Shown in pieces: positions 6,459 through 52,984 of a stretch of 64,000 nucleotides of DNA (position 1 is the stretch's first letter; every line of letters starts with the position of its first letter). The stretch is from NCBI GenBank assembly GCA_014874185.1, contig JACWAF010000033.1, forward strand, positions 21,234-85,233. Reading direction: 5' to 3'. This DNA is from Nitrospirota bacterium. Its GTDB lineage: Bacteria > Nitrospirota > Thermodesulfovibrionia > Thermodesulfovibrionales > JdFR-88. The notes under the pieces were generated by a model that made no database searches, was not told the origin of the DNA, and saw nothing but the letters and a program-made list of their open reading frames with translations. The position numbers and the translations under genes are program-made.

Positions 6459-6487
6459 CGCGCGCATGGACGGGTGAAGGAAGGGCG

Positions 6488-8223: not shown

Positions 8224-8227
8224 ACCA

Positions 8228-11910: not shown

Positions 11911-11913
11911 CGA

Positions 11914-12429: not shown

Positions 12430-12436
12430 GAGCGAT

Positions 12437-12949
12437 ATGGAATACCTTTTCTACATATCGGGTGCGGCGGCGGTAATTTCCACCTTCATGGTTATCATCC
12501 AGACGAAGGCGGTGCACGCCCTGTTGTACCTGATCGTCTCACTGCTTTCAGTGGCACTGGTCTTCTTCTCGTTTGGGGCGCCGTTCGTTGCCGCCCTGGA
12601 GGTGATTATCTATGCCGGGGCGATCATGGTCCTGTTCGTCTTCGTTATCATGATGCTTAACCTCGGCCCCGAGGCCGCTGAAGAGGAGAAGAAACTCATC
12701 TCCGCCAGGATGTGGATAGGGCCTTCCATACTGGCCGCAATCCTGCTTGCGGTGCTCATCTACACGCTGACCAGGACCGGAACAATAGCCAATCCGCTGA
12801 TAGTCGGGCCAAAAGAGGTGGGGATGGCGCTCTACGGCCCGTATCTCATAGGCGTGGAACTGGCCTCGATATTGCTTCTGGCCGGAATGGTAGGGGCCTA
12901 TCACCTGGGCAGGGGACGGCGTTACGGCGGCCCTGGGGAGGGGGAGTAA
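12437..12949 (+). CDS. nuoJ: NADH-quinone oxidoreductase subunit J
   Basis: 170 aa and hydrophobic. Position between nuoI and nuo[17 protein letters not shown] motif. Confidence 0.9.
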
Positions 12950-12950
12950 G

Positions 12951-13259
12951 ATGGCTTATCTGCCCGTGGAGCATGGGTTCATCCTGGCCGCGATTCTATT
13001 CGTAACCGGGCTTGCCGGCGTCCTGGTGAGGCGGAATATCATCTTCATACTCATGTCCATAGAGATCATGTTGAACGCCGCCGGGCTGGCCTTCATTTCG
13101 GCGGGCTCCAGGTGGGGGCAGCCGGACGGGCAGGTCATGTATATCTTCATTCTGGCCATGGCCGGGGCCGAGGTCTCGGTTGGGCTGGGTCTTGTGCTCC
13201 GCTTCTATCACCTGTTCAGGACCCTTGACGCCGACGAGGCAAGCAGGATGAAAGGATAA
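12951..13259 (+). CDS. nuoK: NADH-quinone oxidoreductase subunit K
   Basis: 102 aa with three TM helices. SIEIMLNA and AGAEVSVGL motifs. Confidence 0.93.
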
Positions 13260-16684: not shown

Positions 16685-18092
16685 TCTGAGGGCCCTTCTG
16701 CCTTTTATGATACTTGCGGCAAGCCCTGTTGCCGTAATCCTCGCCATAGCCTTTTACCGGGGCCACGCGCTCTCGTTCATAATCTCGATAGCCGGGCTTC
16801 TGATATCCTTCGGTTCCCTTTTTTATTCCTTCCGGTATGCCCCAAGGGCCGTCACGCCGCTTTTAATAATAGACAGGTACAGCCTTTTTTTTACCGGGCT
16901 TATCCTGCTGGCCACGCTTGCGGTCTCATTGATCTCGTTTGGCTATCTTGAGAACCGCTCATACAGGAGGGGTGAATACTACGCCCTGCTATTGAGCGCG
17001 GCGCTGGGCGCGTCAACCCTTGTTGCAAGCTCGCATTTCGCCTCCTTCTTCCTGGGTCTTGAGATACTTAGCCTCTCCCTTTACGCGATGGTGGCCTACA
17101 CGCGCGGCAGCAGGTTCAGCCTGGAAGCCGCTTTCAAGTACCTGGTGCTGGCCTCGGTCTCATCCGCGTTCCTGCTCTTCGGGATGGCCCTGATATATTC
17201 GTATGCGGGCACGATGGAGCTGGCCGGGCTTGCGCTGGTCTCACGGGCAGGCCCTTCGGTGTTCGCCACGGCAGGGCTTGCGATGATGCTGGTGGGGATT
17301 GGCTTCAAGCTGGCCCTGGCGCCTTTTCACATGTGGACGCCGGATGTGTACGAAGGGGCCCCGGCCCCCGTATCCGCCTTTGTGGCTACAGTCTCCAAGG
17401 GGGCGGTCTTCGCGCTCCTGGTGCGCTATTTCTCGGCGTTCAGCCTGCACGACTACCCCTACTTGTTCTGGGTGCTCGCGGGGATTTCCATACTGTCCAT
17501 GCTCATAGGCAACCTGCTGGCTCTTTTGCAGAACAATGTAAAGCGCATCCTTGCATACTCCTCTATCTCCCAACTGGGTTACCTGCTGGTGGCCTTTCTC
17601 GCTTCCGGACCTCAGTCCTTCGCGGCCGTCTCCTATTACCTGGCCTCGTATTTTGTCGCGATGCTGGGCTCATTCGGCATAGTGGCCGTCCTGGCCGGCC
17701 CGCGAGGCGAGCTGGTGAACCTGGAGGATTATCAGGGGCTGGTCTGGAACAGGCCCTGGCTGGCGGGGATATTCACCGGCATGCTCTTATCGCTGGCGGG
17801 GCTTCCGCTCACCGCGGGTTTCATAGCCAAATTCTATATCGTCTCGGCGGGCGTCCAGGCGGGCCAGTGGGCGCTTGTCCTGGTGCTTGCCGCAAGCAGC
17901 GTGATAGGGCTTTTCTACTATGTCCGGGTGATAGCGGCCATGTATTCCAAACGGCTTGAGGCCGTCCCTTACGGAGAGGTCCCGGTGGGGGGAGGGATAG
18001 CTGTCGCCGTCCTGACGGTAGCGCTCCTCTGGCTTGGGATATGGCCCTCTACGCTGATAGGGATCATACAAAGAATGATTTACGGCAACTGA
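16671..18092 (+). CDS. nuoN: NADH-quinone oxidoreductase subunit N
   Basis: ATG at 16671 (MAPDDLRALLPF), 14-nt overlap with nuoM. HMWTPDVYEGAPAPVSAF motif. Confidence 0.93.
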   Translation: MAPDDLRALLPFMILAASPVAVILAIAFYRGHALSFIISIAGLLISFGSLFYSFRYAPRAVTPLLIIDRYSLFFTGLILLATLAVSLISFGYLENRSYRRGEYYALLLSAALGASTLVASSHFASFFLGLEILSLSLYAMVAYTRGSRFSLEAAFKYLVLASVSSAFLLFGMALIYSYAGTMELAGLALVSRAGPSVFATAGLAMMLVGIGFKLALAPFHMWTPDVYEGAPAPVSAFVATVSKGAVFALLVRYFSAFSLHDYPYLFWVLAGISILSMLIGNLLALLQNNVKRILAYSSISQLGYLLVAFLASGPQSFAAVSYYLASYFVAMLGSFGIVAVLAGPRGELVNLEDYQGLVWNRPWLAGIFTGMLLSLAGLPLTAGFIAKFYIVSAGVQAGQWALVLVLAASSVIGLFYYVRVIAAMYSKRLEAVPYGEVPVGGGIAVAVLTVALLWLGIWPSTLIGIIQRMIYGN

Positions 18093-18215: not shown

Positions 18216-18731
18216 ATGCTTAGGGTTCCAGGTGCCGTTATGCTGGTCTTCTTTCTGGTCCCGTTCCTCCCGGCGCAAGCCCCTATGGCAGCGGGCGACC
18301 CGCAGACGGGAAGACAGCTTTTCATCGGCACAAGGGAATTGAAAAATGGCGGGCCGCCCTGCATGGCCTGCCATAACGCCGGAGCCATAGAATTCCTCGG
18401 GGGCGGCAATCTTGGCCCGGACCTGACCAATTCGTTTTCCTCTTTCGGGCCGGGAATCGCCGGACTTCTGGAAAACGTGAGCTTTCCGGTCATGAAGCCC
18501 ATTTATGACGCGCACCCGATACAGCCGGATGAGGCGCAGGATATCGCGGCCTACTTGAAGGGCCTTTCGGGCGTTATTGTGCCCGTAGACCTGTTTTACA
18601 GGTTTCTCGTCCTCTCTCTTGTTGTATTCGTGGTCTTCATGCTCATAATCTGGTTCGCCTGGCGGCACAGGCTTGTGGGCGCAAGAAAGAGGCTTGTCAG
18701 CGCAGGACTGCCGCTTAATCCCCAGAGGTGA
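18216..18731 (+). CDS. Monoheme c-type cytochrome with signal peptide and C-terminal membrane anchor (NarC-like position)
   Basis: AGAGGTG Shine-Dalgarno then ATG at 18216. Hydrophobic N-terminal leader, a single CMACH heme motif, C-terminal TM helix LVLSLVVFVVFMLIIWFAW. The stop at 18729-18731 lies 1 nt before the narG ATG. Confidence 0.8.
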   Translation: MLRVPGAVMLVFFLVPFLPAQAPMAAGDPQTGRQLFIGTRELKNGGPPCMACHNAGAIEFLGGGNLGPDLTNSFSSFGPGIAGLLENVSFPVMKPIYDAHPIQPDEAQDIAAYLKGLSGVIVPVDLFYRFLVLSLVVFVVFMLIIWFAWRHRLVGARKRLVSAGLPLNPQR

Positions 18732-18732
18732 T

Positions 18733-21700
18733 ATGGGCTGGATACAGGACATAGTGGACCCCAAGGCAAGACTGTGGGAGGAATTGTACCGGAACCGGTG
18801 GGAATACGACCGACTGCACAGGAGCACCCATGGCGTGAACTGCACGGGCGGATGTTCCTGGGAGGTCTACGTGAAAGACGGCATCGTGGTCTGGGAGCTG
18901 CAGGCCACCGATTATCCTTCCCTTGAGCCCGGACTTCCCGGTTATGAGCCCCGCGGATGCCAGAGGGGCATAACCTTTTCCTGGTATATATACAGCCCTC
19001 TCAGGGTGAAATACCCCTATATAAGAGGCGTACTGGCCGATATGTGGCGGAAGGCCAGGGCGGCCTTCGCCGATCCCGTCGAGGCATGGGCGTCGATTAT
19101 GGAAGATGAAGAGGCCAGGAAGAGATTTCAGAAGGCCAGGGGAAAGGGCGGACTGAGGCGCACTACATGGGACGAAGCCGTGGAGATAATCTCCGCCGCC
19201 ACCCTTTATACCATAAAGAAGTACGGCCCCGACCGGCTGGCGGGTTTTACGCCCATCCCGGCCATGTCCATGCTCAGCTACGCCTCGGGCGCCAGGTTCC
19301 TGCAGCTTCTGGGCGGGGTAGTCCTCAGCTTTTACGACTGGTATGCCGATTTCCCTCCGGCCTTTCCGGAGGTCTGGGGGGACAAGACCGACGTTGGGGA
19401 GAGCGCGGACTGGTACAACAGCAAGATGATCGCCGTTATGGGGTCGAACCTGAACATGACGAGGACGCCTGACGTGCACTTTGCCGCGGAGGCAAGGAAC
19501 AACGGCTCCAAACTTGTCGTCTTCTCCCCGGATTTCAGCCAGCTCTCCAAATACGCCGACTGGTGGCTGCCAGTGAGGGCCGGGCAGGACGCGGCCTTCT
19601 GGATGGCCGTGGACCACGTGATCCTTAAAGAGTTTTACGCCGATGCGGAGGTCCCTTTCTTCTCCGGGTATCTGAAAAAATATACGGACGCCCCGTTCCT
19701 GGTTGAAATAGAAGTGAAAGAGGACTCCAACAGGGCTGGAAAATTCCTCCGGGCGGGCGAGCTTGACCGGTATAAAGGTTCCGAAAACCCCGAATGGAAA
19801 CTCCTGGTATTCGATGCCAAAACGAACTCGGCAAAATCTCCCAACGGCTCGATAGGGTTCAGATGGCAGAAGCGGGAAGGGCTGTGGAACCTCAATATGA
19901 AAGACGGCGAGGACGGTTCGGAAATAGAGCCGGTGCTCAGTTTTATAAAAGACAGGGATGCCGTCATCCCGGTAGATTTCCATTCTGCCGGGGATGCCGG
20001 GAATCTCCGGCGCGGGGTGCCGGTAAAGTACATCGAGACTGCGAGGGGCCCGGTGGCCGTAAGCACGGCCTTTGACCTGATGACGTCGCAGTTCGGCGTC
20101 TCGCGCGGCCTGGAGGGGGATTATCCTGAAGGGTACGGCGATAATATGGCTTATACCCCTGCATGGCAGGAAAAACATACGGGGATAAGTGCGGACACCG
20201 TTGTGCAGTTCGCGCGCGAATGGGCCCGCACCGCAGTCAGCACCAGGGGCAAATGCATGGTAATCGCGGGCTCCGGCGTGAACCACTGGTACAACGCCAA
20301 CCTGATTTACCGTTCGGCCATTACGGCCCTGATGCTCTGCGGGTGCGTGGGGGTGAACGGGGGAGGGATGAACCACTATACCGGGCAGGAGAAGATCGTC
20401 CCCGAGTCGGCCTGGCGCACTATCGCGTTCGCGACGGACTGGCTCAATCCGCCACGCCTTCAGAATACGCCCTCTTACCATTACGTGCACAGCTGCCAGT
20501 GGCGCTACGACTCGCCCGGACGCGAGGACAGGATCCTTGGGAACGATCACCCCATGGATATGCAGGCCATGGCGGTGCGCCTAGGGTGGCTGCCTTTTTA
20601 TCCCCAGTTCGACAGGAGCACCATCGGGCTTGTGAAAGAGGCCGCAGGGGCGGGTGCGAAAACGGATGATGAGATAATAAGCTGGCTTATACGAGAACTG
20701 AAGGAAGAGAGGGTCCGCTTCGCCGTGGAGGAACCGGACAGGCCTGAAAACTGGCCCAGGGTTCTTTTCATATGGCGCGGCAACGCCCTCCACACCAGCG
20801 CAAAAGGCGAAGAGTATTCGTTCAAACATTACCTTGGCACCGGCACAAACGAGATATCCGAAGAGACGAAGAACCCGCCCATCCATGATGTAAGCATGAA
20901 GTGGCCGGCCCCCGAGGGAAAGCTGGACCTTGTCGTGGATCTTAATTTCAGGATGGACACCTCGGCGCTTTATTCCGATATCATACTGCCCTCCGCAAGC
21001 TGGTACGAAAAAGACGACATGAACACGACCGACCTTCATTCCTATATCCATCCCCTTTCCGCCGCGGTGCCCCCGTGCTGGGAGTCGAAGGACGACTGGG
21101 AGATTTTCAAGACGATAGCAAGGAAAGTGAGCGAGCTTTCCAGGGCCCATTTCCCAAGGCCGTTCAAGGACATCGTTGCCACCCCCCTCATGCATGATTC
21201 AAGGGATGAAATGGCACAGCCCTCGGTCAAGGACTGGAAAAAGGGCGAGTGCGAGCCCATCCCCGGAAAGACCATGCCCAGGTTCACCATAGTGGAAAGA
21301 AATTATCCGGACCTCTATAACAGGTATATCTCCTTCGGCCATCTTCCCAAAAAGACCGGCATGCACGAAAAGGGCGTCCACTGGCAGATGGAAGACCTCT
21401 ATTACGATTATCTGAAGGGAGCGCCGTCTGAAACCTGGGGCGGCAAGACCTACATATCACTTTCGGGGGCAAGGGAGGCGGCCAATGTGGTCCTGTTCTT
21501 CGCCCCGGAGACAAACGGTGAGGTATCACACAGGGGTTTTGAGGACCTCGAAAAAAAGACCGGCGTGAAACTGGCCGGCCTGGCGGAAGAGACGAGGGGG
21601 GTGCGCTACAGTTTCGCGGACCTCCTGGCCCAGCCAAGAAGGATACTTACATCTCCATGCTGGACCGGCATAACGAACAGGGGCAGGGCATACTCGGCCT

Positions 21701-22329
21701 TTGTGATAAACGTGGAGCGGGGAGTGCCCTGGCGGACCCTTTCCGGGCGGCAGCATTTTTACATGGACCATGAAGGCTATCGCGAGTTCAACGAGGGCTT
21801 CCCCACCTTCAAGGCAAAGCTTACGAAAGAGCGCTCCGGGGACCTGCGGAAGACAGCCTCCGCGGGCAGGTCCGTCCTTCTCAACTGCCTGACCCCGCAT
21901 GGCAAGTGGCACATACACAGCACCTATTCTGACAACTTGCTGATGCTGCTCCTGTCGAGAGGGGTGGAGCCTTTCTGGCTGAACCTGGCGGACGCCGCGG
22001 AAATTGGCGTAAGGGACAACGACTGGGTGGAGGTCTACAACGACAACGGGGTGGTGGTGACCAGGGCGGTCCTGAGCGCGCGAATCCCGAGGGGGGTGGG
22101 CTTCTTCTATCATGCCCCTGAGCGCACTATGGGTTTCCCGAAATCGCCCTTGAGAAATATGAAACGGGGAGGCGGCACGAACGCCCTGACGCGCGTGCGC
22201 CTTAAACCCCTTTTCATGATCGGCGGATACGCGCAGTTTTCATACGCGTTCAATTACTGGGGGCCTCCGGCCCCGGACAGGGACACGTACGCCCTGGTCC
22301 GGAAGCTGGAAGGCAAGCCGGTTTTTTAA
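18733..22329 (+). CDS. narG: Respiratory nitrate reductase alpha subunit (NarG-type Mo-bisMGD enzyme; could equally be a cytoplasm-facing NxrA)
   Basis: ATG at 18733 after AGAGGTG. HRSTHGVNCTGGCSWEVY is the FS0 H-x3-C-x3-C motif. Similarity to my recollection of E. coli NarG runs end to end (GPDRLAGFTPIPAMSMLSYASGARF, YDWYADFPP, ILPSASWYEKDDMNT, TPHGKWHIHSTYSDNLLML). No twin-arginine signal. Confidence 0.93.
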   Translation: MGWIQDIVDPKARLWEELYRNRWEYDRLHRSTHGVNCTGGCSWEVYVKDGIVVWELQATDYPSLEPGLPGYEPRGCQRGITFSWYIYSPLRVKYPYIRGVLADMWRKARAAFADPVEAWASIMEDEEARKRFQKARGKGGLRRTTWDEAVEIISAATLYTIKKYGPDRLAGFTPIPAMSMLSYASGARFLQLLGGVVLSFYDWYADFPPAFPEVWGDKTDVGESADWYNSKMIAVMGSNLNMTRTPDVHFAAEARNNGSKLVVFSPDFSQLSKYADWWLPVRAGQDAAFWMAVDHVILKEFYADAEVPFFSGYLKKYTDAPFLVEIEVKEDSNRAGKFLRAGELDRYKGSENPEWKLLVFDAKTNSAKSPNGSIGFRWQKREGLWNLNMKDGEDGSEIEPVLSFIKDRDAVIPVDFHSAGDAGNLRRGVPVKYIETARGPVAVSTAFDLMTSQFGVSRGLEGDYPEGYGDNMAYTPAWQEKHTGISADTVVQFAREWARTAVSTRGKCMVIAGSGVNHWYNANLIYRSAITALMLCGCVGVNGGGMNHYTGQEKIVPESAWRTIAFATDWLNPPRLQNTPSYHYVHSCQWRYDSPGREDRILGNDHPMDMQAMAVRLGWLPFYPQFDRSTIGLVKEAAGAGAKTDDEIISWLIRELKEERVRFAVEEPDRPENWPRVLFIWRGNALHTSAKGEEYSFKHYLGTGTNEISEETKNPPIHDVSMKWPAPEGKLDLVVDLNFRMDTSALYSDIILPSASWYEKDDMNTTDLHSYIHPLSAAVPPCWESKDDWEIFKTIARKVSELSRAHFPRPFKDIVATPLMHDSRDEMAQPSVKDWKKGECEPIPGKTMPRFTIVERNYPDLYNRYISFGHLPKKTGMHEKGVHWQMEDLYYDYLKGAPSETWGGKTYISLSGAREAANVVLFFAPETNGEVSHRGFEDLEKKTGVKLAGLAEETRGVRYSFADLLAQPRRILTSPCWTGITNRGRAYSAFVINVERGVPWRTLSGRQHFYMDHEGYREFNEGFPTFKAKLTKERSGDLRKTASAGRSVLLNCLTPHGKWHIHSTYSDNLLMLLLSRGVEPFWLNLADAAEIGVRDNDWVEVYNDNGVVVTRAVLSARIPRGVGFFYHAPERTMGFPKSPLRNMKRGGGTNALTRVRLKPLFMIGGYAQFSYAFNYWGPPAPDRDTYALVRKLEGKPVF

Positions 22330-22340
22330 GAGGAGATAAA

Positions 22341-23828
22341 GTGGACATCCGCGCCCAGGTATCGATGGTCTTTCATCTGGACAAGTGCATAGGCTGCCAC
22401 ACATGCAGCATCGCCTGCAAGAACATCTGGACCCCCAGGCGCGGCACCGAGTACATGTGGTGGAACAACGTTGAGACGAAGCCCGGCACCGGCTATCCCA
22501 CCCTGTGGGAAGACCAGGGTAAATACAGGGGCGGCTGGGCCGTCCACAAGGGAAAACCCAAACTGAAATTGCAGGGCAGGGCGGGCGCGCTGGCCAACAT
22601 ATTCTTCAACCCGTATCTGCCCACGATGGGCGACTATTACGAGCCCTGGACATATCACTATGAAGACCTCGCCAATGCCCCGGAGGGCGACGACCAGCCG
22701 GTCGCGACCCCGGTCTCGGAGATAACCGGCCGGGACATGGAAATAGAGGCCGGGCCTAACTGGGATGATGATCTGAGCGGCTCTTACATTTATGCCGAAA
22801 GCGACCCGAACAGGCTGGCGCTTACGCCGGAGGAGAGAGAGGTCTCCTTCAGGATGGAGAGGCTCGCCTTCTTCTACCTGCCCAGGATCTGCAATCACTG
22901 CCTGAACCCCGGCTGCCTTGCCGCGTGTCCGGCGGGCGCCATTTACAAACGCGGGATGGACGGCATAGTGCTTGTAAGCCAGGACAAGTGCCGGGCGTGG
23001 AGGATGTGCATATCCGGCTGTCCGTATAAAAAAGTCTATTACAACTGGGCGACGGGAAAATCCGAGAAGTGCATATTGTGCTATCCAAGGCAGGAAACGC
23101 AGCAGCCGCCCGCGTGTTTCCACGCGTGCGTGGGGCGCATCCGTTATCTGGGGCTGGTGCTTTATGATGCCAAGATGATAGAGGCGGCCGCCTCCGTTCC
23201 GGACCATGAGCTTGTGAGCGCGCACAGGGACATTATTAAAGACCCGTTTGACCCGGAGGTCATCGCCAGGGCGAAAGAGAATGGCATATCCGATCACATG
23301 ATCAAAGCCGCGCAGTCGTCGCCCGTATACAAATTTGTGAAAGAGTGGCGGATCGCGCTCCCCCTTCATCCAGAATTCAGGACACTGCCGATGCTCTTTT
23401 ATGTCCCGCCGCTTCTTCCGGTTACAGCCTCGATGAAAGACGGCATCTACGAGAGCACGGGTGAATTTTTCGGCTCACTTGAGAATTTGAGGGTCCCTCT
23501 CAGGTATTTCGCGTCGCTTCTGGCCGGGGGGAACGAAGCCGAAGTGGAGCGCTCTTTCAAAAAGCTCTACGCGGTGCGGGTCTACAGGCGCGCGCAGACG
23601 GCGGGCGATATAAGCCAGAAGGAGGTCAGCCGGGTGCTCGAAGCGGCGGACACGTCTCCGGAGGAAGTCGAAGCCATATACAAAATGAGCTCGCTTGCCT
23701 CATATGAGGAGCGGTTCGTCATGCCGCCGTTCATGCGCGAGGCGGCCATAGAGGCCGAGGAAGAGCCGTCCAGGAGAAAAACGGATGCAGGGGCCGGGTT
23801 CATAAGCAAACTGAGGAGGGGTATCTGA
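22341..23828 (+). CDS. narH: Respiratory nitrate reductase beta subunit (Fe-S)
   Basis: GTG start 7 nt after AGGAG. MDIRAQVSMVFHLDKCIGCHTCSIACKNIW..WWNNVETKPG closely parallels E. coli NarH. Further Cys clusters CNHCLNPGCLAACP and CRAWRMCISGCPY. Confidence 0.95.
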   Translation: MDIRAQVSMVFHLDKCIGCHTCSIACKNIWTPRRGTEYMWWNNVETKPGTGYPTLWEDQGKYRGGWAVHKGKPKLKLQGRAGALANIFFNPYLPTMGDYYEPWTYHYEDLANAPEGDDQPVATPVSEITGRDMEIEAGPNWDDDLSGSYIYAESDPNRLALTPEEREVSFRMERLAFFYLPRICNHCLNPGCLAACPAGAIYKRGMDGIVLVSQDKCRAWRMCISGCPYKKVYYNWATGKSEKCILCYPRQETQQPPACFHACVGRIRYLGLVLYDAKMIEAAASVPDHELVSAHRDIIKDPFDPEVIARAKENGISDHMIKAAQSSPVYKFVKEWRIALPLHPEFRTLPMLFYVPPLLPVTASMKDGIYESTGEFFGSLENLRVPLRYFASLLAGGNEAEVERSFKKLYAVRVYRRAQTAGDISQKEVSRVLEAADTSPEEVEAIYKMSSLASYEERFVMPPFMREAAIEAEEEPSRRKTDAGAGFISKLRRGI

Positions 23829-23832
23829 AAAT

Positions 23833-24363
23833 ATGGAAAACTGCCCTGCGGGGCTTTATGCCCTTTTTGCGGACCTGATGGATTATCCCACCCCCGCCTT
23901 GAAGGAAAAGGCGGGCGAGTGCGCTTCCGCCTTGCCGGCGGTGAACGGAAAGGCCCTGGGCCCGTTTTCCAGGTTCAGGGATTTTCTGGAAGGGGCCGAA
24001 CTCTCCCTGGTCGAGGAACTTTACACAAGGACATTCGATCTGCAGCCCGTGTGTCCCCCATACGCCGGGCAATACCTCTTCGGTCAGGACATGAGGCGGG
24101 GCATGTTCATGGCGAAATTAAGGAAGCTCTACCGCGAGCGCAATTTCCCGGAGAACGGCGAACTTCCGGACCACCTTGGCGTGATGCTCAGGTTCGTGTC
24201 GAAAAGCCCCTCCATCGAGGAGGCCAGGGAGATTGTGGAATTCTGTCTTGTGCCCTCTTTTCAGAAAATGGTCTCGAAGCTTGCGGAAGGGGAAAACCCT
24301 TACGGGTTTCTGGTCAACGCAATCCTCCTGGCCCTGAACGGGAAAGAGGAGAAAGCGGCGTAG
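23833..24363 (+). CDS. narJ: Nitrate reductase molybdenum cofactor assembly chaperone (NarJ/TorD family)
   Basis: 176 aa. Position between narH and narI. YTRTFDL and ELPDHLGVMLRF motifs typical of NarJ. Confidence 0.8.
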   Translation: MENCPAGLYALFADLMDYPTPALKEKAGECASALPAVNGKALGPFSRFRDFLEGAELSLVEELYTRTFDLQPVCPPYAGQYLFGQDMRRGMFMAKLRKLYRERNFPENGELPDHLGVMLRFVSKSPSIEEAREIVEFCLVPSFQKMVSKLAEGENPYGFLVNAILLALNGKEEKAA

Positions 24364-24367
24364 AGAT

Positions 24368-25072
24368 ATGTCAGATACGGTCTATTTCATAGCCTTCCCC
24401 TACCTTGCCCTCTTTGCCGCATTGGGAGGCGGCCTTTACAGGTACTACAAGCACCGGTTTACGTATTCGAGCGTCTCCTCCCAGCTACTGGAGAACAGGA
24501 TGCTTTTCTGGGGTTCCGTGCCCTGGCATTACGGGATAATCCTGATACTTCTTGCCCATATCGTTCCCCTGGTGGCAACGCCCTTCTGGATATGGCTCCA
24601 TGCGGATCCCACCAGGATACTGCTCCTGGAGGTCATCGGCTCGGCCATGGGGTTCCTGGCCATCCTGGGCATGGCGGCCCTGATCCTGAGGCGCCTCTTC
24701 AGCTTGAAGCCGCGCCATGCCACATCCATCATGGACTGGGTGCTATTGATCGACCTGGCATTTCAGATAGCGCTCGGGTTTTACATCACCCTGTATTACA
24801 GGTGGGGATCAAGCTGGTATCTGTTCACGGCCACTCCGTGGATACGCTCGCTTGCCGCCCTGAACCCCAGGGTAGATTTCGTCAATGAGCTGCCGCCGGT
24901 TGTCCAGCTCCATTTCGTGAACGGGTTCCTGGTTATCGCCCTGATACCGTTTACAAGGCTGGGCCACTTGTTTACCGTTCCGGTCACTTATCTGTGGAGG
25001 CCGTTCCAGGTATTTATATGGAGCAGGAAGAAAAACGGCTATAATGAAACGGGAGGCATATATGGGAAATGA
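24368..25072 (+). CDS. narI: Respiratory nitrate reductase gamma subunit (diheme b, membrane)
   Basis: 234 aa with five TM helices. Conserved His in WHYGIILILLAHIV and later helices. The gene order narGHJI fits. Confidence 0.85.
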   Translation: MSDTVYFIAFPYLALFAALGGGLYRYYKHRFTYSSVSSQLLENRMLFWGSVPWHYGIILILLAHIVPLVATPFWIWLHADPTRILLLEVIGSAMGFLAILGMAALILRRLFSLKPRHATSIMDWVLLIDLAFQIALGFYITLYYRWGSSWYLFTATPWIRSLAALNPRVDFVNELPPVVQLHFVNGFLVIALIPFTRLGHLFTVPVTYLWRPFQVFIWSRKKNGYNETGGIYGK

Positions 25073-25589
25073 AGAGGAGCGGTCAGCCCCTACGGTCTCA
25101 AGGCGGAGCTTTGTATTGAGAGCGGTCATAGGCGTGTTCACTTCGCTGGGCGCGCTGGTGATGGCCGTGCCTTTTTTAAGGGTGGTATTCAACGCCGCCC
25201 CGCTTAGAAAGGCCGAATGGGCCGAAGCCGCCAATATCAGCATATTGCCGGAAGGGCAGCCGAAAGACGTTAAATTCGAGGCCCATTCGGTGGACGCTTA
25301 TTTGCGGCAGATGAAACTGAGGAGCGTATGGGTGATAAAGCACTCCCCCGAAATTTTTTCCGTTTTTTCCCCCATCTGCCCCCACCTGGGCTGCTATTAT
25401 AAGTGGGACCCCTCGACACAGCATTTCGAATGCCCCTGCCATGGCAGCGTTTTCACCATTACCGGGAAGGTCATAGGCGGGCCTGCTCCAAGGCCGCTGG
25501 ACACCCTCCCTTACAAGGTGCAGGGGGGCAAGCTGTTTGTGAAGTGGGAGAGGTTCCAGGTCGGCATACCTCAGAAGGTAAGGGTATAG
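25062..25589 (+). CDS. Rieske [2Fe-2S] protein with twin-arginine signal (bc-complex copy 1)
   Basis: GGGAGG then ATG at 25062 (an alternative ATG lies at 25044). SRRSFVLRAVIG Tat motif. CPHLGC...CPCHGS Rieske boxes. Overlaps the narI 3' end by 11 nt. Confidence 0.9.
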   Translation: MGNEEERSAPTVSRRSFVLRAVIGVFTSLGALVMAVPFLRVVFNAAPLRKAEWAEAANISILPEGQPKDVKFEAHSVDAYLRQMKLRSVWVIKHSPEIFSVFSPICPHLGCYYKWDPSTQHFECPCHGSVFTITGKVIGGPAPRPLDTLPYKVQGGKLFVKWERFQVGIPQKVRV

Positions 25590-25591
25590 CC

Positions 25592-27583
25592 ATGGCCTGG
25601 AAATGGTTTACCGAAAAGTGGCCCTATTACCAGCTTAAAAAGCTGCTCCTTTATGAGGAGCTGCCCGGAGGAGCTGCGTTTGCGTCTACGCTGGGAAGCT
25701 CCCTCATGGTCATCTTTACCTTGCAGGTCCTCACCGGCATAGCCCAGCTCTTCTATTATGTCCCTACGACAGACCATGCCTACGACAGCGTGGCCTATCT
25801 GCGCACGGAAGTCCCGTTCGGCTGGTTCGTTCATAACATGCACTACTGGGGCGCCAACGCGATGGTCCTCGTTATCGCCCTGCACATGATAAGGGTTTAT
25901 GTCTGGGGGGCATACAAGACACAGCTTACCTGGCTTATCGGGGTCGCCCTCATGCTTTGCGCAATGGTAATGAGCTTCACCGGCGCGCCCCTCATATGGG
26001 ACGAGAAGGGATACTGGGCAGGTGAAGTAGGCTCCGGCATAACCAGTACTGTCCCTGTTTTGGGCAATATTGTGAAAACGATACTCCGGGGCGGCGAATC
26101 GATGGGCCAGCTTTCGATATCCCGGTTCTTCGTATTTCATGTGTGGGTCTTCGCGCCGGTCCTGGCTTTCCTGATAGCGGCCCATATAGCGGCCTTAAGG
26201 ACGACCGGGATAGCAGGCCCCTGGGATGAAAGAAAGAGAAGGCGGGTGGGCCATTTCTGGCCGGACCAGGCGGCTAGAGACATTATCGTGGCCTCGGTCG
26301 TCTTTTTCATCCTGGTCACCCTTTCCGTATTTTTGCCCCCTCCGTTCACCGGGCAGGCGGACCCCCTCAACACATCCTATGTGCCCAAACCGGAGTGGAA
26401 CTTCCTTTTCGTCTACCAGGCGCTCAAATATTTTCAGGGCCCGCTGGAGCCGGTCGGCACCGTGGGCGTGCCGACAGTTCTTATAGTTCTCCTTGTCATA
26501 TTGCCCTTCATTGACAAGGGCCCGGAACGGAACCCGCTTAGAAGGCCGATTGCAATGGCCTGCCTGTTCGTATATGCCTGTTTCATAATAGCCATGACCA
26601 TAATGGGTTATCTCAGCCCCGGTTTTGCCCAGATGGCCGGGGCGGCCGGGGCCCCGGCGGCAAGGTTGGGAAAAGGCGAGACCGGCGGCGCAAAAGGGCC
26701 GGCTGGGAAGGGCGTTGCGGCCGGCCGGAAGCTCTTTCAAAGCGAAGGCTGTGCCGGATGCCACAAGGTAAACGGACAGGGCGGAACCATGGGGCCTGAG
26801 TTATCAGGGGCCACGCTGAAGGGAAAGACCAGGAAGTGGCTTGCCGATCAGATAAGAAACCCGAAATCACATAATCCGAATTCCATAATGCCCGCTTTCA
26901 GCCAGCTCTCGAAGAACCAGGTAAACGCGCTGGTTGACTATCTCATGGGTCTTGCTGGCACTGGCGGGGCCCCGGGGCCTGCGGCAAAGCCGCAGCCCCG
27001 GGCGCCGGGTGCCGGTGCTCAAGTCCAGCCCGGTCAGGCAAATGCGGTATCGGCACCGGGGCAGGCCCAACCCAGCCAATTAAAGGTGGTCCCGCCCGAT
27101 ACGGTGCCGGAAACTCCGTCGGGTAAAGCGGCATATATAATAGGCAGTGCCAGCAATGGAGAACAGCTCTTCAAGGAACAATGCGCGCAATGCCATGGGG
27201 CAAAAGGGGCTGGCGGAGTGCCCAATCCCGGTTCGGCTGAGGGGGTGGTCCCCCCGCTTAGTCCCATAAATAAAAACATCGCGAGCCCGGACCCGAAGCA
27301 GTTTGCCCGGAACATAGATAAATTCATTCAGCATGGGGCCATTCCCCCAGGGCCCAATCCGGCCCTGCAGATGCCGGTCTTCGGCGACAATAATTCCCTC
27401 ACCCAGCCGGAGATTTCAAACATAGAGGCATACATACTGAAGCTGAACGGGGTGGACCGCAGCATCCCCGCTCACCCCGGAATGGACCCGCGCCTGTTTT
27501 ATGCGGTATTCGTTATCGCCTATGTTGTCGCCGCAATCGTTCTCCTCATGATGTGGCGAAATGCGGGGAGGAGCCGGACATGA
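25592..27583 (+). CDS. Fusion protein: cytochrome b (b6-like N domain + subunit IV-like C domain) + two class I c-type heme domains + C-terminal TM anchor
   Basis: ATG at 25592 (MAWKWFTEKW). Helix B is H-x13-H (HYWGANAMVLVIALH) and helix D is H-x14-H (HVWVFAPVLAFLIAAH). KPEWNFLF sits at the PEWY position. CAGCH..MPAF and CAQCH..MPVF heme c units are separated by P/A/G/Q-rich linkers. Terminal TM helix FYAVFVIAYVVAAIVLLMMW. Confidence 0.9.
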   Translation: MAWKWFTEKWPYYQLKKLLLYEELPGGAAFASTLGSSLMVIFTLQVLTGIAQLFYYVPTTDHAYDSVAYLRTEVPFGWFVHNMHYWGANAMVLVIALHMIRVYVWGAYKTQLTWLIGVALMLCAMVMSFTGAPLIWDEKGYWAGEVGSGITSTVPVLGNIVKTILRGGESMGQLSISRFFVFHVWVFAPVLAFLIAAHIAALRTTGIAGPWDERKRRRVGHFWPDQAARDIIVASVVFFILVTLSVFLPPPFTGQADPLNTSYVPKPEWNFLFVYQALKYFQGPLEPVGTVGVPTVLIVLLVILPFIDKGPERNPLRRPIAMACLFVYACFIIAMTIMGYLSPGFAQMAGAAGAPAARLGKGETGGAKGPAGKGVAAGRKLFQSEGCAGCHKVNGQGGTMGPELSGATLKGKTRKWLADQIRNPKSHNPNSIMPAFSQLSKNQVNALVDYLMGLAGTGGAPGPAAKPQPRAPGAGAQVQPGQANAVSAPGQAQPSQLKVVPPDTVPETPSGKAAYIIGSASNGEQLFKEQCAQCHGAKGAGGVPNPGSAEGVVPPLSPINKNIASPDPKQFARNIDKFIQHGAIPPGPNPALQMPVFGDNNSLTQPEISNIEAYILKLNGVDRSIPAHPGMDPRLFYAVFVIAYVVAAIVLLMMWRNAGRSRT

Positions 27584-39136: not shown

Positions 39137-39787
39137 TCAGAGCCCCCCTGAAATCCCCTGCCTCTTCACCATATGAAAGTGCGCCCATAGCACCATGAAC
39201 ATGAAAACGGGTATCCAGAGGACGTGCAGGCTGTAAAACCTTATGAGCGTTGCACCCTGCACCTCGGCACCGCCACGGAGAAGCATGACTACAAACGGCC
39301 CGATGCCGGGCACTGTGCCGCCCATCGATGTGCCAACCACCGTGGCCCAGTATGCCTTCTGGTCCCACGGGAGCAGATATCCGGTAAATCCGGAGGCAAG
39401 CACCAGGACAAGGGTAAGCGAGCCGGCTATCCAGTTAAGCTCTCTTGGCGGCCTGTACGCCTTGTAAACGAAAACCCGGACAGTATGGAAGACGATGAAG
39501 ATTATCAGGATGGTTGCGGACCATTTATGCAGGCTTCTTATCAGCCAGCCCCCCCAGACGGCGTTGTTTATCTCAAGCACGCTCTTGTAGGCGTCCGTGG
39601 CGGAGGGCACATAATAGACCGAAAGCATCAGCCCGGTGACAACGGAGGTCATGAAGCAGACAAAAGCCATCCCGCCGAAGCAGTAGGAAAAGTTCAGCTT
39701 TACGGGGACCGACCTGGAGAGGAACCCCTTGTGAGGCTCCCTCAGCCTGAAGAGCCTGTCCAGTACGCGTACGATGAGGTCTATCAA
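39137..39787 (-). CDS. Cytochrome b6-like protein (cytochrome b N-terminal domain), bc-complex copy 2
   Basis: 216 aa. H-x13-H (HKWSATILIIFIVFH) and H-x14-H (HVLWIPVFMFMVLWAH). NFSYCFGG matches the FYCLGG Cys that binds heme ci in b6-type cytochromes. Confidence 0.9.
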   Translation of the reverse strand: MIDLIVRVLDRLFRLREPHKGFLSRSVPVKLNFSYCFGGMAFVCFMTSVVTGLMLSVYYVPSATDAYKSVLEINNAVWGGWLIRSLHKWSATILIIFIVFHTVRVFVYKAYRPPRELNWIAGSLTLVLVLASGFTGYLLPWDQKAYWATVVGTSMGGTVPGIGPFVVMLLRGGAEVQGATLIRFYSLHVLWIPVFMFMVLWAHFHMVKRQGISGGL

Positions 39788-40248
39788 GTCCTCACCCCGA
39801 TGTAGAAATCCCCGTTCACTATCTTATAGGGCAGGCGTGTAAGGGGCCTGGGGGCGGGGCCGCCGATTACCTTGCCCGTTATATCGAAAGCGCTCCCGTG
39901 GCAGGGGCAGTCGAATTCGTTCTTGAAGGGGTTCCAGCGCACCTGGCAGCCAAGATGGGTGCATGTGGGCGAGAGGGCGATAATCTTCCCGTTCGCGTTT
40001 GAGAGGTAGACCCTGAAGCTCTGGTCACGGAAGGTGAAATCCACTTTCTTGACCCCTCTGCGCGGGAGGGAGTACTCATCGAATACCCTGACGAACTCTA
40101 ACGCGCCTTCTTTTCCCGTGCTGAAAGGATAGAAATAAGGCAGGCCGGCAAGCCCTCCGAGTCCCAAAACCGCCAGAGAGGCCTTTACGAGAGCGGAAAG
40201 GAAATCCCTTCTGCCTTCATGGCCTTTATTCCTCTGTGTCCTCAACAT
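39784..40248 (-). CDS. Rieske [2Fe-2S] protein with Tat-like signal, bc-complex copy 2
   Basis: GRRDFLSALVKASLAV, CTHLGC...CPCHGS. 4-nt overlap with the b6-like gene. The start overlaps the ihfB 3' end by 23 nt. Confidence 0.9.
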   Translation of the reverse strand: MLRTQRNKGHEGRRDFLSALVKASLAVLGLGGLAGLPYFYPFSTGKEGALEFVRVFDEYSLPRRGVKKVDFTFRDQSFRVYLSNANGKIIALSPTCTHLGCQVRWNPFKNEFDCPCHGSAFDITGKVIGGPAPRPLTRLPYKIVNGDFYIGVRT

Positions 40249-50696: not shown

Positions 50697-51236
50697 ATGG
50701 ACGAGCGGGAAAAGAAAATAGCCGAAAAGGTAATGGGCGAAGAGCGCGAGACGGTCATGCTCACCGGGCTTGTCCGGGAGAGGGTTTACGAGTTCCTTGT
50801 AATGAAAAAAGGCTACTTGCCCGAAGAGATAGAGATAGACATGCCCCTGGAGGTCTCGGACGGGAAAAGATCGGAAGAGTGCACGGTGGACTATATTGTA
50901 AGGCCCGGGGGCAGGCCCCTTATGGCCATCAAATGCGCCCTGACCGCCCTGGAATCCAGCGAGAGGCATATCCTGGCCTTCTGCCGTGTGGCGGGCGGGA
51001 TACCCATAAGCGTGGTCACAAACAGCGAGGCCGCAAGGGTCATCGATACCAAAAGCGGAAAGCTTGTCTCCGAGGACATTCAATCTCTTCCCGGCAGGGC
51101 GGAGGGGCTGGAGATGACTGAAAAGCTTGGAGCCAACTATTCCGAAGACAGGATCGCAAAAGAAAAACGGATACTTCTGGCCTTCAACGCGCTCAGGTGC
51201 TCCGCGCCAAACGCCTGCCCTGGAAAAGAGGAATAA
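50697..51236 (+). CDS. Small HsdR_N-like (PD-(D/E)xK fold) domain protein; function unknown
   Basis: 179 aa. VDYIV...PLMAIKC...SERHILAFCRVAGGIPISVVTNSEAARVID resembles the D...(E/A)xK...Q..Y...y.v.TNG pattern of type I restriction enzyme R N-terminal domains (from memory). No hsdM/hsdS nearby. Confidence 0.45.
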   Translation: MDEREKKIAEKVMGEERETVMLTGLVRERVYEFLVMKKGYLPEEIEIDMPLEVSDGKRSEECTVDYIVRPGGRPLMAIKCALTALESSERHILAFCRVAGGIPISVVTNSEAARVIDTKSGKLVSEDIQSLPGRAEGLEMTEKLGANYSEDRIAKEKRILLAFNALRCSAPNACPGKEE

Positions 51237-51337
51237 CTGTTCTTTTTCTTGTAAGAAAAAGAACCAAAAAGAACTTCTGGATTTTTTCGCTCCCGTTCGG
51301 GAGCGAAAAAATATTAAGAGTTTTTTCTCTTTGGTTT
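51237..51337. repeat. Structured AT-rich repeat, family C copy 2
   Basis: Hairpins at 51239-51264 (GTTCTTTTTC-TTGTAA-GAAAAAGAAC) and 51281-51312 (ATTTTTTCGCTCCC-GTTC-GGGAGCGAAAAAAT), with linker CAAAAAGAACTTCT. It exactly fills the gap between two convergent stops. Confidence 0.6.
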
Positions 51338-52639
51338 TTATTTCCCCTCGGTCGAGACGGTTATGGTCTTCTCCGCCTTGTTGAAGAGGAAGGCGTTATC
51401 GTCCTTCACGCCGAATGGCTCGTACCATAGCTCTACGAGGACGTTGATCTTGTCATTAAGTATTTTCCGCACCGGTTTGCCGTCAATGGCCACATCCCGG
51501 CAGGGGAATTTGAACGTGAACTTCTCGTCGACATCTCGAAGCGGCGGAAGGCTTGTGTCCCTCAGGATACCGCTCTTTTCGTATGGTCCTCTGCCCATCC
51601 GGTCTCCGCGGCCCAACTGCAGCGGGATCGGCATGTAGATCCTGGAATCCTTGAAAACTTCCTGCCCGTCAGGTGTCTTAGCGGTGACTTCCAGCACCAG
51701 CCTGTTGGGGGTAGGTCAACCATCGGGTATGCCGTGGCCGGCCTTGTTTCTCAGATGGACCCGCACCTCGCCCTGGGGGACGATAACAGTGCCGTCACGC
51801 CAGATATCGGCGTCCGCGTGTACGTCGAAGTCCACGGCCATCTTTTGCATCTCCGGCGAGCGGTAGCTCTGCATATTGTGCCCAAGGCCGCTCTTTTCCA
51901 TATGGCATTCCTGGCAGGTCTCGTTGCCCCCCTCGGCCCTGTAGACCATGTTATAGCTGGCGTAAAGGGTGGCGCACTGGGAGGGGTTGTCGAACTCGAA
52001 ATTGGGCCCTGTGCCGTGGCATTGCCCGCAGAGGACGGATTCCTTCATTATGAAACTCTTTTTAAGCTTCGTGAAGGTCGGGTGCGGGTGCTTGCCATCC
52101 CTGGTGCCGTAGACGGTGTCCTTCTGGGGATAGCCGTCCGCCCATTTGTGGATTATGGCGTTCCGGTTATGGCAGATAAGGCAATTGATGTTTACCTTTT
52201 CAAGCTGCTCTCTGGCATGCGCCGCCACCTTCTCGTCTGGCGAGGATAGGTCGAAGACGTTTTTCATGATCTCCCTGGCCACGGAGTCCTCCGCGTCTTT
52301 CAATTGCGGCAGGTGGCACTTGGCGCAGACCATCAGGTGCACCACCTTGACGTCCTCGGGCTTCTTCACGCCGGAGTAGGGCCATTCCATGAACCCGTTA
52401 ATGCTGGTGGTCTTAAGCGTGGCCGCCGTACGGCCTGTGCCGAAGATGCTCCTTGAGTGGATGGATTTCTGCCAGTCCTCGTAGATCCTGGCATGGCATT
52501 CCTTGCACGAGCTGGAATCGTACATGGCCGCAAGCTCGTCAATCGTCTTCGCCTTCTTTGTCTCGGCCCCTGACTGGCCAGGCAGGGATAAGACGGCCAG
52601 GGCGAGGGCGAGACAGAACACTGCTCCCGCTGATCGCAT
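51338..52639 (-). CDS. Secreted pentaheme c-type cytochrome whose frame continues through an in-frame TGA (51716-51718)
   Basis: Signal peptide, then five CxxCH motifs (CKECH, CAKCH, CLICH, CGQCH, CQECH). The 307-aa ORF ends ...NKAGHGIPDG-TGA. The same frame continues PTPNRLVLEVTAKTPDGQEVF... for 125 more codons to TAA at 51338. The ORF track lists the tail as a separate GTG-started 119-aa ORF. Confidence 0.7.
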
Positions 52640-52984
52640 AGACTCCTCCTCCTGTTTTGGTCCTAAATAAAATACCCGCTTCCCGATTATCCATGGAAAG
52701 AAGCTAAACGTAAATCGTACAAAGCAAAAAAGATCACCAAAACTTCGGATTCAGCAGAAATCCTCCATCTCCTGGCCATATTTAAGCACTATTTAAAAAG
52801 AAGTCAATGGGTTTATAAACTATATGATTATTTTCCGCGTTTGTTCCTGGAAAGAGGGCCTTTTCAAAACTGCCTAAAATCTGAAAATAGCGTAAAATAT
52901 TACTATCTTCTGGCTGGCGGCTCGCTTGACAGTTCAGGCGGGCCCTCTATATTATTTAAGACTTGTGTGAAGGATGGCGGAAAG

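Follow-up and report, generated by a model that had tools for sequence, protein, structure and literature searches.

The locus at 51338-52639 on the minus strand of the window, the whole 64-kb stretch of DNA that was analysed, raises the question of why a cytochrome reading frame should run on through a stop codon. A heme-rich part of 307 codons, with five CxxCH motifs at residues 45, 105, 153, 204 and 242, ends ...HLRNKAGHGIPDG at an in-frame TGA (51718-51716). The same frame then reads PTPNRLVLEVTAKTPDGQEVF... for 125 more sense codons up to a TAA at 51340-51338. At the composition of the window (56% GC), the chance of 125 stop-free codons is approximately 0.008. The frame, the position of the TGA and both codon counts are as described in an earlier note on this DNA, which had left four options standing without choosing between them. 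The first of these, selenocysteine (Sec), is backed by homologues, structure and a downstream hairpin; the other three, a nonsense mutation or pseudogene, a sequencing error and a split gene, are each contradicted. We consider it highly probable that the locus is a single gene, encoding a periplasmic selenoprotein of the MccSep/ExtKL family with five hemes, and that its UGA is read as Sec. The gene has the following features.

51338 to 52639, minus strand: whole gene, predicted 433-residue MccSep/ExtKL pentaheme cytochrome c selenoprotein (ATG 52639, Sec codon 308, TAA 51340-51338)
52637 to 52639, minus strand: start codon ATG
52643 to 52654, minus strand: strong Shine-Dalgarno sequence caGGAGGAGGAg, 4 nt upstream of the ATG, read from the sequence
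52686 to 52714, minus strand: weak candidate for a sigma-70-like promoter, TTTACG-17-GATAAT, from a consensus scan alone (9/12 matches)
51716 to 51718, minus strand: UGA, very likely a Sec codon, residue 308 in the D-G-U-P loop, aligned to the catalytic U325 of Geobacter sulfurreducens MccSep
51239 to 51264, minus strand: terminator-like hairpin downstream of the TAA

Between the TGA and the C-terminal part, the coding (minus) strand carries no terminator-like site, and no convincing ribosome-binding site separates the two halves. Public records hold the exact sequence as two separate unnamed ORFs, and the C-terminal part has entries of its own in public collections, the unnamed proteins P0121 and P0122. 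Gene callers give this part as a separate ORF of 98 residues (from ATG 51634) or 119 residues (from GTG 51697). The correct annotation would be one 433-residue selenoprotein, not a 307-residue cytochrome followed by an unnamed ORF of 98 or 119 residues.

The fused protein matches NCBIfam NF040886, an equivalog model named 'cyt_C_like_Sec' (multiheme c-type cytochrome (seleno)protein ExtKL), with E = 8e-173 and a score of 575 bits, the cutoff being 250 bits. The match is a single stretch across the TGA, which extends from residue 11 to residue 428 of the protein and takes in positions 11-422 of the 423 in the profile. MccSep (= ExtKL, GSU2937-GSU2936) of G. sulfurreducens PCA is a polysulfide reductase (Mihara et al., Sci Adv 2026; PMC13510729), and its crystal structures have been deposited as PDB 9wt8, 9wt9 and 9wta-c. 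Residues 25-433 of our protein can be aligned to residues 38-450 of the MccSep chain in 9wt8/9wt9 (E ~4e-170) without a gap at the TGA; the sequence identity is 59.2% over 409 residues. R83, H122, C239, D323-G324-U325-P326 and K372 of MccSep correspond to R70, H109, C222, D306-G307-TGA-P309 and K355, respectively. The roles of H122, C239, R83 and K372 and the description of the Ig-like domain are those of PMC13510729. The closest relatives of the protein are found in Nitrospirota/Thermodesulfovibrionales MAGs, at no more than 62% identity among genome representatives and no more than 69% among metagenome proteins. The features of the predicted protein are listed below.

52565 to 52639, minus strand: probable Sec-type signal peptide MRSAGAVFCLALALAVLSLPGQSGA, followed by ETKK (hydrophobic N-terminus and small-residue site S-G-A, read by eye)
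52493 to 52507, minus strand: heme 1 motif CKECH, residues 45-49, aligned to C58/C61/H62 of MccSep
52430 to 52432, minus strand: Arg70, by alignment the equivalent of R83, an anion/substrate-binding residue at the channel entrance
52313 to 52327, minus strand: heme 2 (active-site heme) motif CAKCH, residues 105-109, with H109 equivalent to the proximal ligand H122
52169 to 52183, minus strand: heme 3 motif CLICH, residues 153-157
52016 to 52030, minus strand: heme 4 motif CGQCH, residues 204-208
51974 to 51976, minus strand: Cys222, by alignment the equivalent of C239, the distal thiolate ligand of heme 2 and partner of Sec
51902 to 51916, minus strand: heme 5 motif CQECH, residues 242-246
51575 to 51577, minus strand: Lys355, by alignment the equivalent of K372, which makes a water-mediated contact to the Sec selenium
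51341 to 51715, minus strand: predicted C-terminal Ig-like β-sandwich 'stem' domain, residues 309-433, aligned without gaps to residues 326-450 of 9wt9

The motifs of hemes 1 and 2 were compared with those of the crystallised protein, and both align. The Cys222 column is invariant in our homologue alignment (A1). By alignment to MccSep, heme 2 would have His/Cys axial ligation by H109 and C222. The N-terminus is probably a signal peptide and the protein periplasmic, judging from its sequence and from the example of MccSep, which is cleaved after residue 25 and located in the periplasm; a signal peptide and periplasmic location have been reported for 97% of homologues (PMC13510729).

The TGA had been suspected to lie inside one conserved motif and not between two genes, and this is indeed the case, the motif being GH-x-x-P-D-G-U-P-T-P-N-R-L-V-L. 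The earlier note had proposed aligning homologues at the TGA position. Among 80 related loci from different species, the codon in this column is TGA in 76, TGC (Cys) in three Thermodesulfovibrio-like MAGs (L079, L082, L083), GTC in one diverged locus and TGG in none, and the frame runs on past the TGA in all 76. Cys is also found in this column in two full-length database homologues (P0005, P0034). The idea that the position is often aromatic, leaving TGG one step away from TGA, did not survive the comparison: no homologue has TGG or an aromatic residue in this column, and we therefore rejected a Trp ancestry of the codon.

These data bear on the possibility that a recent nonsense mutation turned TGG or TGC into TGA, in which case the heme part of 307 residues would be the sole product and the downstream frame would be decaying. 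The TGA is taken as a stop by gene callers and public records, it is the ordinary stop codon of 17 of the 44 other genes in the window, and the Sec machinery was not seen nearby. A Pfam survey of 40 ORFs in the 64-kb window, supplemented for the remaining ORFs near the gene by reading of their translations, revealed no selA, selB or selD, and ARAGORN found no tRNA at all in the window, and hence no tRNA-Sec. The capacity of the host to insert Sec is thus an assumption. Against a pseudogene, the presence of TGA in 76/80 loci across several phyla indicates that the codon is ancestral, not recent. Furthermore, the 125 downstream codons are intact, align gaplessly with the crystallised C-terminal domain and retain the catalytic K355, and the synonymous sites just after the TGA are under extra constraint instead of being relaxed (see below). 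We regard a pseudogene as very improbable, and a Sec codon inside one gene as very likely. Sec would then be inserted in the source organism, which is probably Nitrospirota/Thermodesulfovibrionia-like and is likely to be a selenium user.

The coding sequence just downstream of the UGA contains a small hairpin.

51680 to 51702, minus strand: SECIS-like hairpin, stem starting 17-20 nt after the UGA
51682 to 51699, minus strand: core stem, U-GGUG (51699-51695) pairing with CACC-G (51686-51682), loop CUGGAAGU (51694-51687)

The earlier note had picked out the correct element, GGUG-N8-CACC, which is present at 51698-51683 and starts 17 nt after the UGA. It had also called the support for a SECIS thin, which holds for the folding of the single sequence but not for the comparative evidence, which is strong. 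Over the 50 nt that begin at the UGA, it is the hairpin of minimum free energy (-8.0 kcal/mol). Thermodynamically it is weak: when 67 nt starting at the UGA were folded, the energy of -16.2 kcal/mol did not stand out from that of shuffles (z = +0.86), a result that is uninformative for a hairpin so short. RNAalifold returned no consensus pairs for an alignment of 59 sequences and was replaced by explicit pair counting and a test of synonymous-site entropy. A search of the locus against Rfam, with E values as high as 10 allowed, brought up only chance-level matches and no SECIS family.

An equivalent hairpin is found in the same register in 59 TGA-type relatives. Each of the five core pairs is formed in at least 95% of these sequences, and for all six tested pairs the value is 86%, compared to 21-55% in slid controls. 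Pair 22:35 is GC in 53 of the TGA-type relatives and AU in five; pair 24:33 is CG in 55 and GC in one, which is the window. This compensatory swap from C-G to G-C (GUG...GUC in the window, GUC...GUG in the relatives) consists of two synonymous changes. Double changes are few (five in one pair, two in one pair and one each in two pairs), because the sequence of the stem is so highly conserved. The conservation extends to codon usage. Across 136 conserved 4- or 6-fold degenerate codon columns of the whole gene, the five lowest synonymous entropies are those of codons +6, +7, +8, +10 and +11 after the Sec codon, and the mean entropy is 0.71 for codons +5 to +12 versus 1.76 elsewhere (Mann-Whitney p = 0.001). 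At +8, Leu is encoded by CUG in 59/59 Sec-type loci; CUU, CUG and CUC are used in Cys-type loci, and a GGUC/GACC hairpin downstream of the codon is absent in the three Cys-type loci. The hairpin at 51699-51682 is the family's SECIS-like element and is selected as RNA; it is a putative SelB-binding site. The family seems to have two recoding hairpins, CCGAC-UGGUUCU-GUCGG in Desulfuromonadales and GGUC-CUGGAWGU-GACC. The latter is nearly identical across several phyla and is the type present here, with one compensated stem pair.

The hairpin also bears on the split-protein model, according to which the heme domain ends at the TGA, the Ig-like domain is made from GTG 51697 or ATG 51634, and the two halves associate. 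The corresponding ORFs of 119 and 98 residues exist and have been called as genes. The GTG at 51697 that the earlier note had pointed to is real, but it is part of the conserved hairpin, in whose 5' arm it lies, and is not preceded by a good Shine-Dalgarno sequence, and a restart at this codon would lose the Sec and the conserved PTPNRL residues. The Cys-type homologues are single polypeptides. In G. sulfurreducens, an antibody to the C-terminal part detects a single product of ~49 kDa, and in the crystal structure U325 bridges the two domains of one chain (PMC13510729). A split protein therefore seems even less probable to us than a pseudogene.

Less credible still is an altered genetic code or non-specific read-through, in which UGA would be decoded as Trp or Gly genome-wide, not as Sec. 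In every homologue the UGA is followed by C, which in bacteria makes a leaky context for termination. Since TGA ends 17 of the 44 other, well-supported genes in the window, however, any read-through at 51718-51716 must be specific to this site. The replacement residue in homologues is Cys, which is the hallmark of Sec sites, and the codon is followed by a conserved hairpin at a fixed position. Moreover, chemical analysis of the G. sulfurreducens enzyme has identified Sec at this very position: ESI-MS detected it in the peptide VEMTNHAGHSIPDGUPTPNR, 0.96 Se was found per subunit, and the U325A and U325C variants have lost their activity (PMC13510729). A sequencing or assembly error at 51716-51718, for which nothing specific speaks beyond the generic risk for a single-base feature in a metagenome assembly, is just as hard to credit, given that the TGA, its flanks and the downstream frame are identical in three independent assemblies from three runs (SRR12217121, SRR12217122, SRR12217123) and that 76 related genomes have TGA in the same column.

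The selenoprotein gene stands alone among housekeeping genes, with pheA, hisC, aroF, tyrA, aroA and cmk on one flank and yceD, rpmF, plsX and fabH on the other. An ext-type cluster (extHIJKLMNOPQS) is absent around it; in Geobacter, this cluster contains the rhodanese-like ExtH, the porin ExtI, ExtJ, downstream cytochromes and Rieske/cytochrome b genes. The Nitrospirota relatives likewise are without it, and the ext context is specific to a clade and no defining feature of the protein family. No flanking gene is common to the window and the 80 related loci, the three assemblies of this sequence excepted. There is no conserved partner beside the Nitrospirota homologues, whose flanks are variable and mostly made up of housekeeping genes; single homologues have a multiheme cytochrome (L012) or a DUF3373 protein (L062) as neighbour. 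Given these housekeeping neighbours, neither an electron donor nor a partner for sulfur transfer can be named. The same window also contains respiratory genes of the Nar type and for complex I.

We propose that the UGA would be read as Sec during translation under the direction of the hairpin just downstream in the coding sequence, whose U-GGUG/CUGGAAGU/CACC-G element may recruit SelB and Sec-tRNA(Sec). The product would have 433 residues, with an N-terminal heme 'cap', the D-G-U-P loop and a C-terminal Ig-like domain. By analogy with the G. sulfurreducens enzyme, Sec308 would adjoin heme 2 and its distal ligand Cys222. The selenolate would attack an S-S bond of polysulfide, or selenite, and the adduct would be passed to Cys222 to give an Se-S(n)-S bridge, which electrons arriving via the branched five-heme chain would reduce with release of sulfide. 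All biochemistry for the family comes from the G. sulfurreducens enzyme, and both polysulfide as the substrate of the protein studied here and its presumed physiology are extrapolated from this enzyme, across a phylum boundary and at 59% identity. A periplasmic polysulfide-reducing enzyme would point to reduction or disproportionation of elemental sulfur or polysulfide, beside the Nar-type and complex I genes.

The in-frame TGA is real but already explained, as it very likely is the Sec codon of a known selenoprotein family, the polysulfide reductase of sulfur respiration. Conceptually there is nothing new: the family, the Sec site, the structure and the presence in Nitrospirota were all published in 2026, and a curated NCBIfam model exists. 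The family is found mainly in Desulfobacterota and Nitrospirota (Thermodesulfovibrionia), its clade-specific SECIS-like folds have already been shown (PMC13510729), and ExtKL is listed as a selenoprotein family in a 2026 review of prokaryotic selenoproteomes (PMC13188914). Rather speculatively, one SECIS may have replaced another and then spread horizontally, and the stand-alone Nitrospirota copies may use another donor or chalcogen substrate, for example in sulfur disproportionation. We think this unlikely, and if true, both readings would be a modest extension of the 2026 paper (PMC13510729) at most.

Several known systems can be compared to the one described here. The E. coli fdhF SECIS is a hairpin bound by SelB that lies within the coding sequence, immediately 3' of the UGA. 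Our hairpin resembles it in being a small stem-loop within the ORF, with G-G/U in an apical loop ~20-25 nt after the UGA; the bSECISearch model, due to Zhang and Gladyshev in 2005, is said to expect a loop spacing of 16-37 nt, a range into which this loop falls. Unlike the fdhF element, it has an unrelated sequence without an Rfam match, a stem of just 5-6 bp and a SelB interaction that is putative. TsdA and SoxAX likewise carry out S-S chemistry at a c-type heme with a Cys ligand, a parallel drawn in PMC13510729. The likeness is confined to mechanism, as these proteins are not homologous overall, contain no Sec, work in the oxidative direction and have no sequence match here.

The Cys-type homologues (L079, L082, L083, P0005, P0034) share the fold, the heme motifs and the ...GH-x-x-PDG-[C]-P-[ST]-P-N-R motif, but have TGC instead of TGA and are without the downstream GGUC/GACC hairpin. 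Between the protein studied here and the NF040886 family there is no difference at the level of the model. The protein differs from MccSep in the phylum of its host, in the hairpin (GGUG-CUGGAAGU-CACC at nt 21-36, compared to CCGAC-UGGUUCU-GUCGG at nt 15-31 in Desulfuromonadales) and in having Ala in place of Cys240, a non-essential residue next to the heme ligand (PMC13510729). It resembles MccSep in its length class, probable signal peptide, five CxxCH hemes and predicted C-terminal Ig-like domain, in the probable Sec within the D-G-U-P loop, and in the small hairpin that follows within ~20 nt of the UGA.

The pentaheme cytochrome c reading frame continues through an in-frame TGA, and a short hairpin follows this codon, as the earlier note had described; the coordinates, codon counts and five CxxCH motifs were checked and bear it out:

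52639, minus strand: ATG start codon, with a strong Shine-Dalgarno sequence (GGAGGAGGA) upstream
From 52639, minus strand: N-terminal frame of 307 codons, ending ...HLRNKAGHGIPDG
Residues 45, 105, 153, 204 and 242: five CxxCH motifs within the 307-codon part
51718-51716, minus strand: in-frame TGA, directly after codon 307
To TAA 51340-51338, minus strand: post-TGA frame of 125 sense codons (PTPNRLVLEVTAK...)
51698-51683, minus strand: hairpin GGUG-N8-CACC

At the composition of the window (56% GC), a run of 125 codons without a stop would arise by chance with a probability of ~0.008. Read with the TGA as a residue, the protein gave a single equivalog match in NCBIfam, NF040886 ("multiheme c-type cytochrome (seleno)protein ExtKL"), covering profile positions 11-422 of 423 in one stretch (575 bits, cutoff 250; E = 8e-173). 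Pfam returned only generic multiheme domains for the fused protein. We conclude with high confidence that the TGA encodes selenocysteine (Sec) in a single 433-residue protein.

A protein search recovered >1,300 relatives, the best 120 of which are mostly 302-314 aa long, truncated by gene callers at the same place; a few are full length (438-455 aa). Cys takes the place of the TGA in two full-length homologs, the database proteins P0005 and P0034, which read ...GHGFPDGCPTPNRLVL and ...GHAFPDGCPTPNRLVL. We surveyed the codon in 80 related loci from species-representative genomes (Nitrospirota/Thermodesulfovibrionales, Desulfobulbales, Desulfuromonadales, Myxococcota, Rokubacteria and others). 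TGC occurs in three, GTC in one diverged copy and TGG in none, which refutes the statement in the earlier note that this position is often aromatic. Because the remaining 76 loci have TGA, the codon is ancestral and not a recent lesion; in all of them the frame goes on as P-[ST]-x-x-R. A diverged subgroup (locus L069:3963; database proteins P0083 and P0103) has neither Sec nor Cys at this column (PDSVSSNHR, PDSTSSEHR, PGSGSGQKR) and retains all five hemes as well as the C-terminal domain. Its members are presumably paralogs with different or lost catalytic chemistry.

The hairpin had been judged thin support for a SECIS element, a fair caution for a single sequence, and taken singly it is unremarkable: the 67 nt of downstream RNA folded with z = +0.86 relative to shuffles, Rfam gave no match for the downstream RNA of the window gene, and RNAalifold called no consensus structure. 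Comparison, however, supports it. Outside the Desulfuromonadales, 59 distinct TGA-type sequences share a hairpin, U-GGUC / CUGGAWGU / GACC-G, in one register (nt 20-37 from the U of UGA). By pair counting, each of its five core pairs is formed in at least 95% of these sequences, and 86% of cells are paired in the six-pair structure versus 21-55% after a shift of the 3' arm by 1-3 nt. At pair 22:35, 53 sequences have G-C and five have A-U. Pair 24:33 is C-G in 55 and G-C in one only, the window, where two synonymous changes (Val +7, GUG for GUC in relatives; Val +10, GUC for GUG) keep the pair.

We also aligned 61 Sec-type genes by codon and measured synonymous-codon entropy at all 136 conserved four- or sixfold degenerate columns. 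Entropy in the gene is lowest at exactly the five hairpin-forming codons after the Sec codon: +6 (Leu CUG, 40/41), +7 (Val GUC, 52/54), +8 (Leu CUG, 59/59), +10 (Val GUG, 58/61) and +11 (Thr ACC, 47/54). Entropy averages 0.71 over codons +5 to +12 and 1.76 over the other columns (Mann-Whitney p = 0.001). The hairpin is missing from the three Cys-type loci, whose codons in this region are variable. From these sequence comparisons we conclude that the hairpin is the SECIS-like element of the MccSep/ExtKL family in the clade of the window, where it would bind SelB.

The GGUC-CUGGAWGU-GACC type (nt 21-36), found in the window and 58 other loci, has almost the same sequence in MAGs of Nitrospirota, Desulfobulbales, Myxococcota and Rokubacteria. 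Another 14 loci, mostly Desulfuromonadales (L007-L010, L016, L018, L020, L022, L025, L026, L028, L034, L042 and L058), carry a different hairpin, CCGAC-UGGUUCU-GUCGG, at nt 15-31 after the U of UGA, ~6 nt nearer to it. Two hairpin types in one selenoprotein family may reflect SECIS replacement or horizontal spread. Immediately 5' of the Sec codon, 52 of 60 relatives have GGC as the Gly codon -1 (51719-51721), which shows one of the gene's lowest entropies (0.74); the window has GGT. The bias suggests that recoding favours a particular 5' context, from which the window copy departs.

Public collections (NCBI, Logan) hold the window gene as two separate unnamed proteins, of 307 aa (P0001) and of 98 or 119 aa (P0121, P0122; 51341-51697, minus strand). 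A split gene restarted at GTG 51697 would lose the Sec and the PTPNRL motif, and this GTG is embedded in the 5' arm of the hairpin and lacks a good ribosome-binding site. Moreover, Cys-type homologs are single chains, as is crystallised MccSep, in which heme cap and Ig-like stem are connected through the D-G-U-P loop. No coding-strand terminator was found between the two halves. A pseudogene or nonsense mutation is contradicted by the conservation of the TGA in relatives, by a C-terminal domain that is both intact and conserved, and by constraint downstream of the TGA that is extra, not relaxed. Three independent assemblies (SRR12217121, SRR12217122, SRR12217123) encode an identical 307-aa N-terminal product with the same TGA and downstream frame; this removes sequencing error as an explanation, and the TGA-bearing relatives contradict it too. 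A recoded genetic code is contradicted by normal stop usage, as TGA ends 17 of 44 other well-supported genes in the window; the code is therefore standard and read-through is site-specific. The 64-kb window contains no tRNA gene, and SelA, SelB and SelD were absent among the 40 ORFs surveyed with Pfam.

The selenoprotein gene appears to be monocistronic:

52714-52686: promoter-like site upstream
51264-51239: terminator-like hairpin downstream
50697-51236, plus strand: convergent HSDR_N_2 ORF of 179 aa (type I restriction enzyme R, N-terminal-like)

A GC-rich hairpin between this small ORF and the selenoprotein gene (CGCTCCCGAACGGGAGCG, 51270-51310), with T-runs and A-runs at its sides, looks like a bidirectional terminator. 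The other neighbours are pheA-hisC-aroF-tyrA-aroA-cmk on the same strand and a divergent yceD-rpmF-plsX-fabH. No ext-type cluster surrounds the gene, and its flanking genes are common to none of the 80 related loci. Flanks in the closest Nitrospirota relatives are variable, mostly housekeeping genes. Directly upstream of the homolog, one Nitrospirota relative has a gene for a 600-aa multiheme cytochrome (L012:920-2719) and another a gene for a DUF3373 protein (L062:1079-2776). Both are possible partners of the selenoprotein and are absent from the window.

Other respiratory genes lie elsewhere in the window:

4698-18092, plus strand: complex I (nuo) operon with fused NuoCD (586 aa)
18673-25072, plus strand: NarGHJI-like operon
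25403-27583, after the NarGHJI-like operon: 726-aa fusion of cytochrome b and two cytochrome c domains
39137-40248, minus strand: Rieske Fe-S protein and cytochrome b gene pair

In the nuo operon, NuoG (921 aa) has molybdopterin-oxidoreductase domains, and a 292-aa ORF without Pfam match (15457-16335) separates NuoL-like and NuoM/N-like subunits. The NarGHJI-like operon encodes a 1218-aa molybdopterin subunit, a 4Fe-4S beta subunit with a nitrate-reductase beta C-terminal domain, a delta chaperone and a gamma cytochrome b; it could be of either the nitrate reductase or the nitrite oxidoreductase type. The Rieske/cytochrome b pair is ~11 kb from the selenoprotein gene. Because the Geobacter ext cluster itself contains such a pair (ExtO/ExtP), the distant pair in the window may be a candidate for the complex that donates electrons to the selenoprotein.

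The G. sulfurreducens gsu2937-gsu2936 (extKL) pair yields one ~49-kDa periplasmic protein, MccSep, with five hemes and 0.96 Se per subunit; ESI-MS found its Sec tryptic peptide, VEMTNHAGHSIPDGUPTPNR (PMC13510729). MccSep is a polysulfide reductase that reduces selenite less efficiently and is needed for elemental-sulfur respiration; its activity requires U325, C239 (the heme-2 distal ligand), R83 and K372 (PMC13510729). In a PDB search the window protein aligned, from residue 25 through to its C-terminus, with the MccSep chains 9wt8/9wt9 ("Multiheme cytochrome c selenoprotein (MccSep)"; E ~4e-170; Mihara et al., Sci Adv 2026, PMC13510729), with 59.2% identity over 409 positions and no gap at the TGA. 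In this alignment the TGA of VHLRNKAGHGIPDG-TGA-PTPNR corresponds to U325, and R83, H122, C239 and K372 are all kept, as R70, H109, C222 and K355. The feature is real and correctly explained by existing knowledge. In practice it calls for an annotation fix, as automatic annotation split the gene into two ORFs, and it points to polysulfide reduction that depends on selenium in this organism. Among the 120 best homologs in the databases, most end at the Sec codon too, and the family is systematically mis-annotated. ExtKL/NF040886 is listed among prokaryotic selenoprotein families in a 2026 review (PMC13188914); 394 of 637 MccSep family sequences could be recovered only through UGA read-through, and the family as a whole occurs chiefly in Desulfobacterota and in Nitrospirota of the class Thermodesulfovibrionia (PMC13510729); the window protein is a member of this MccSep/ExtKL family.
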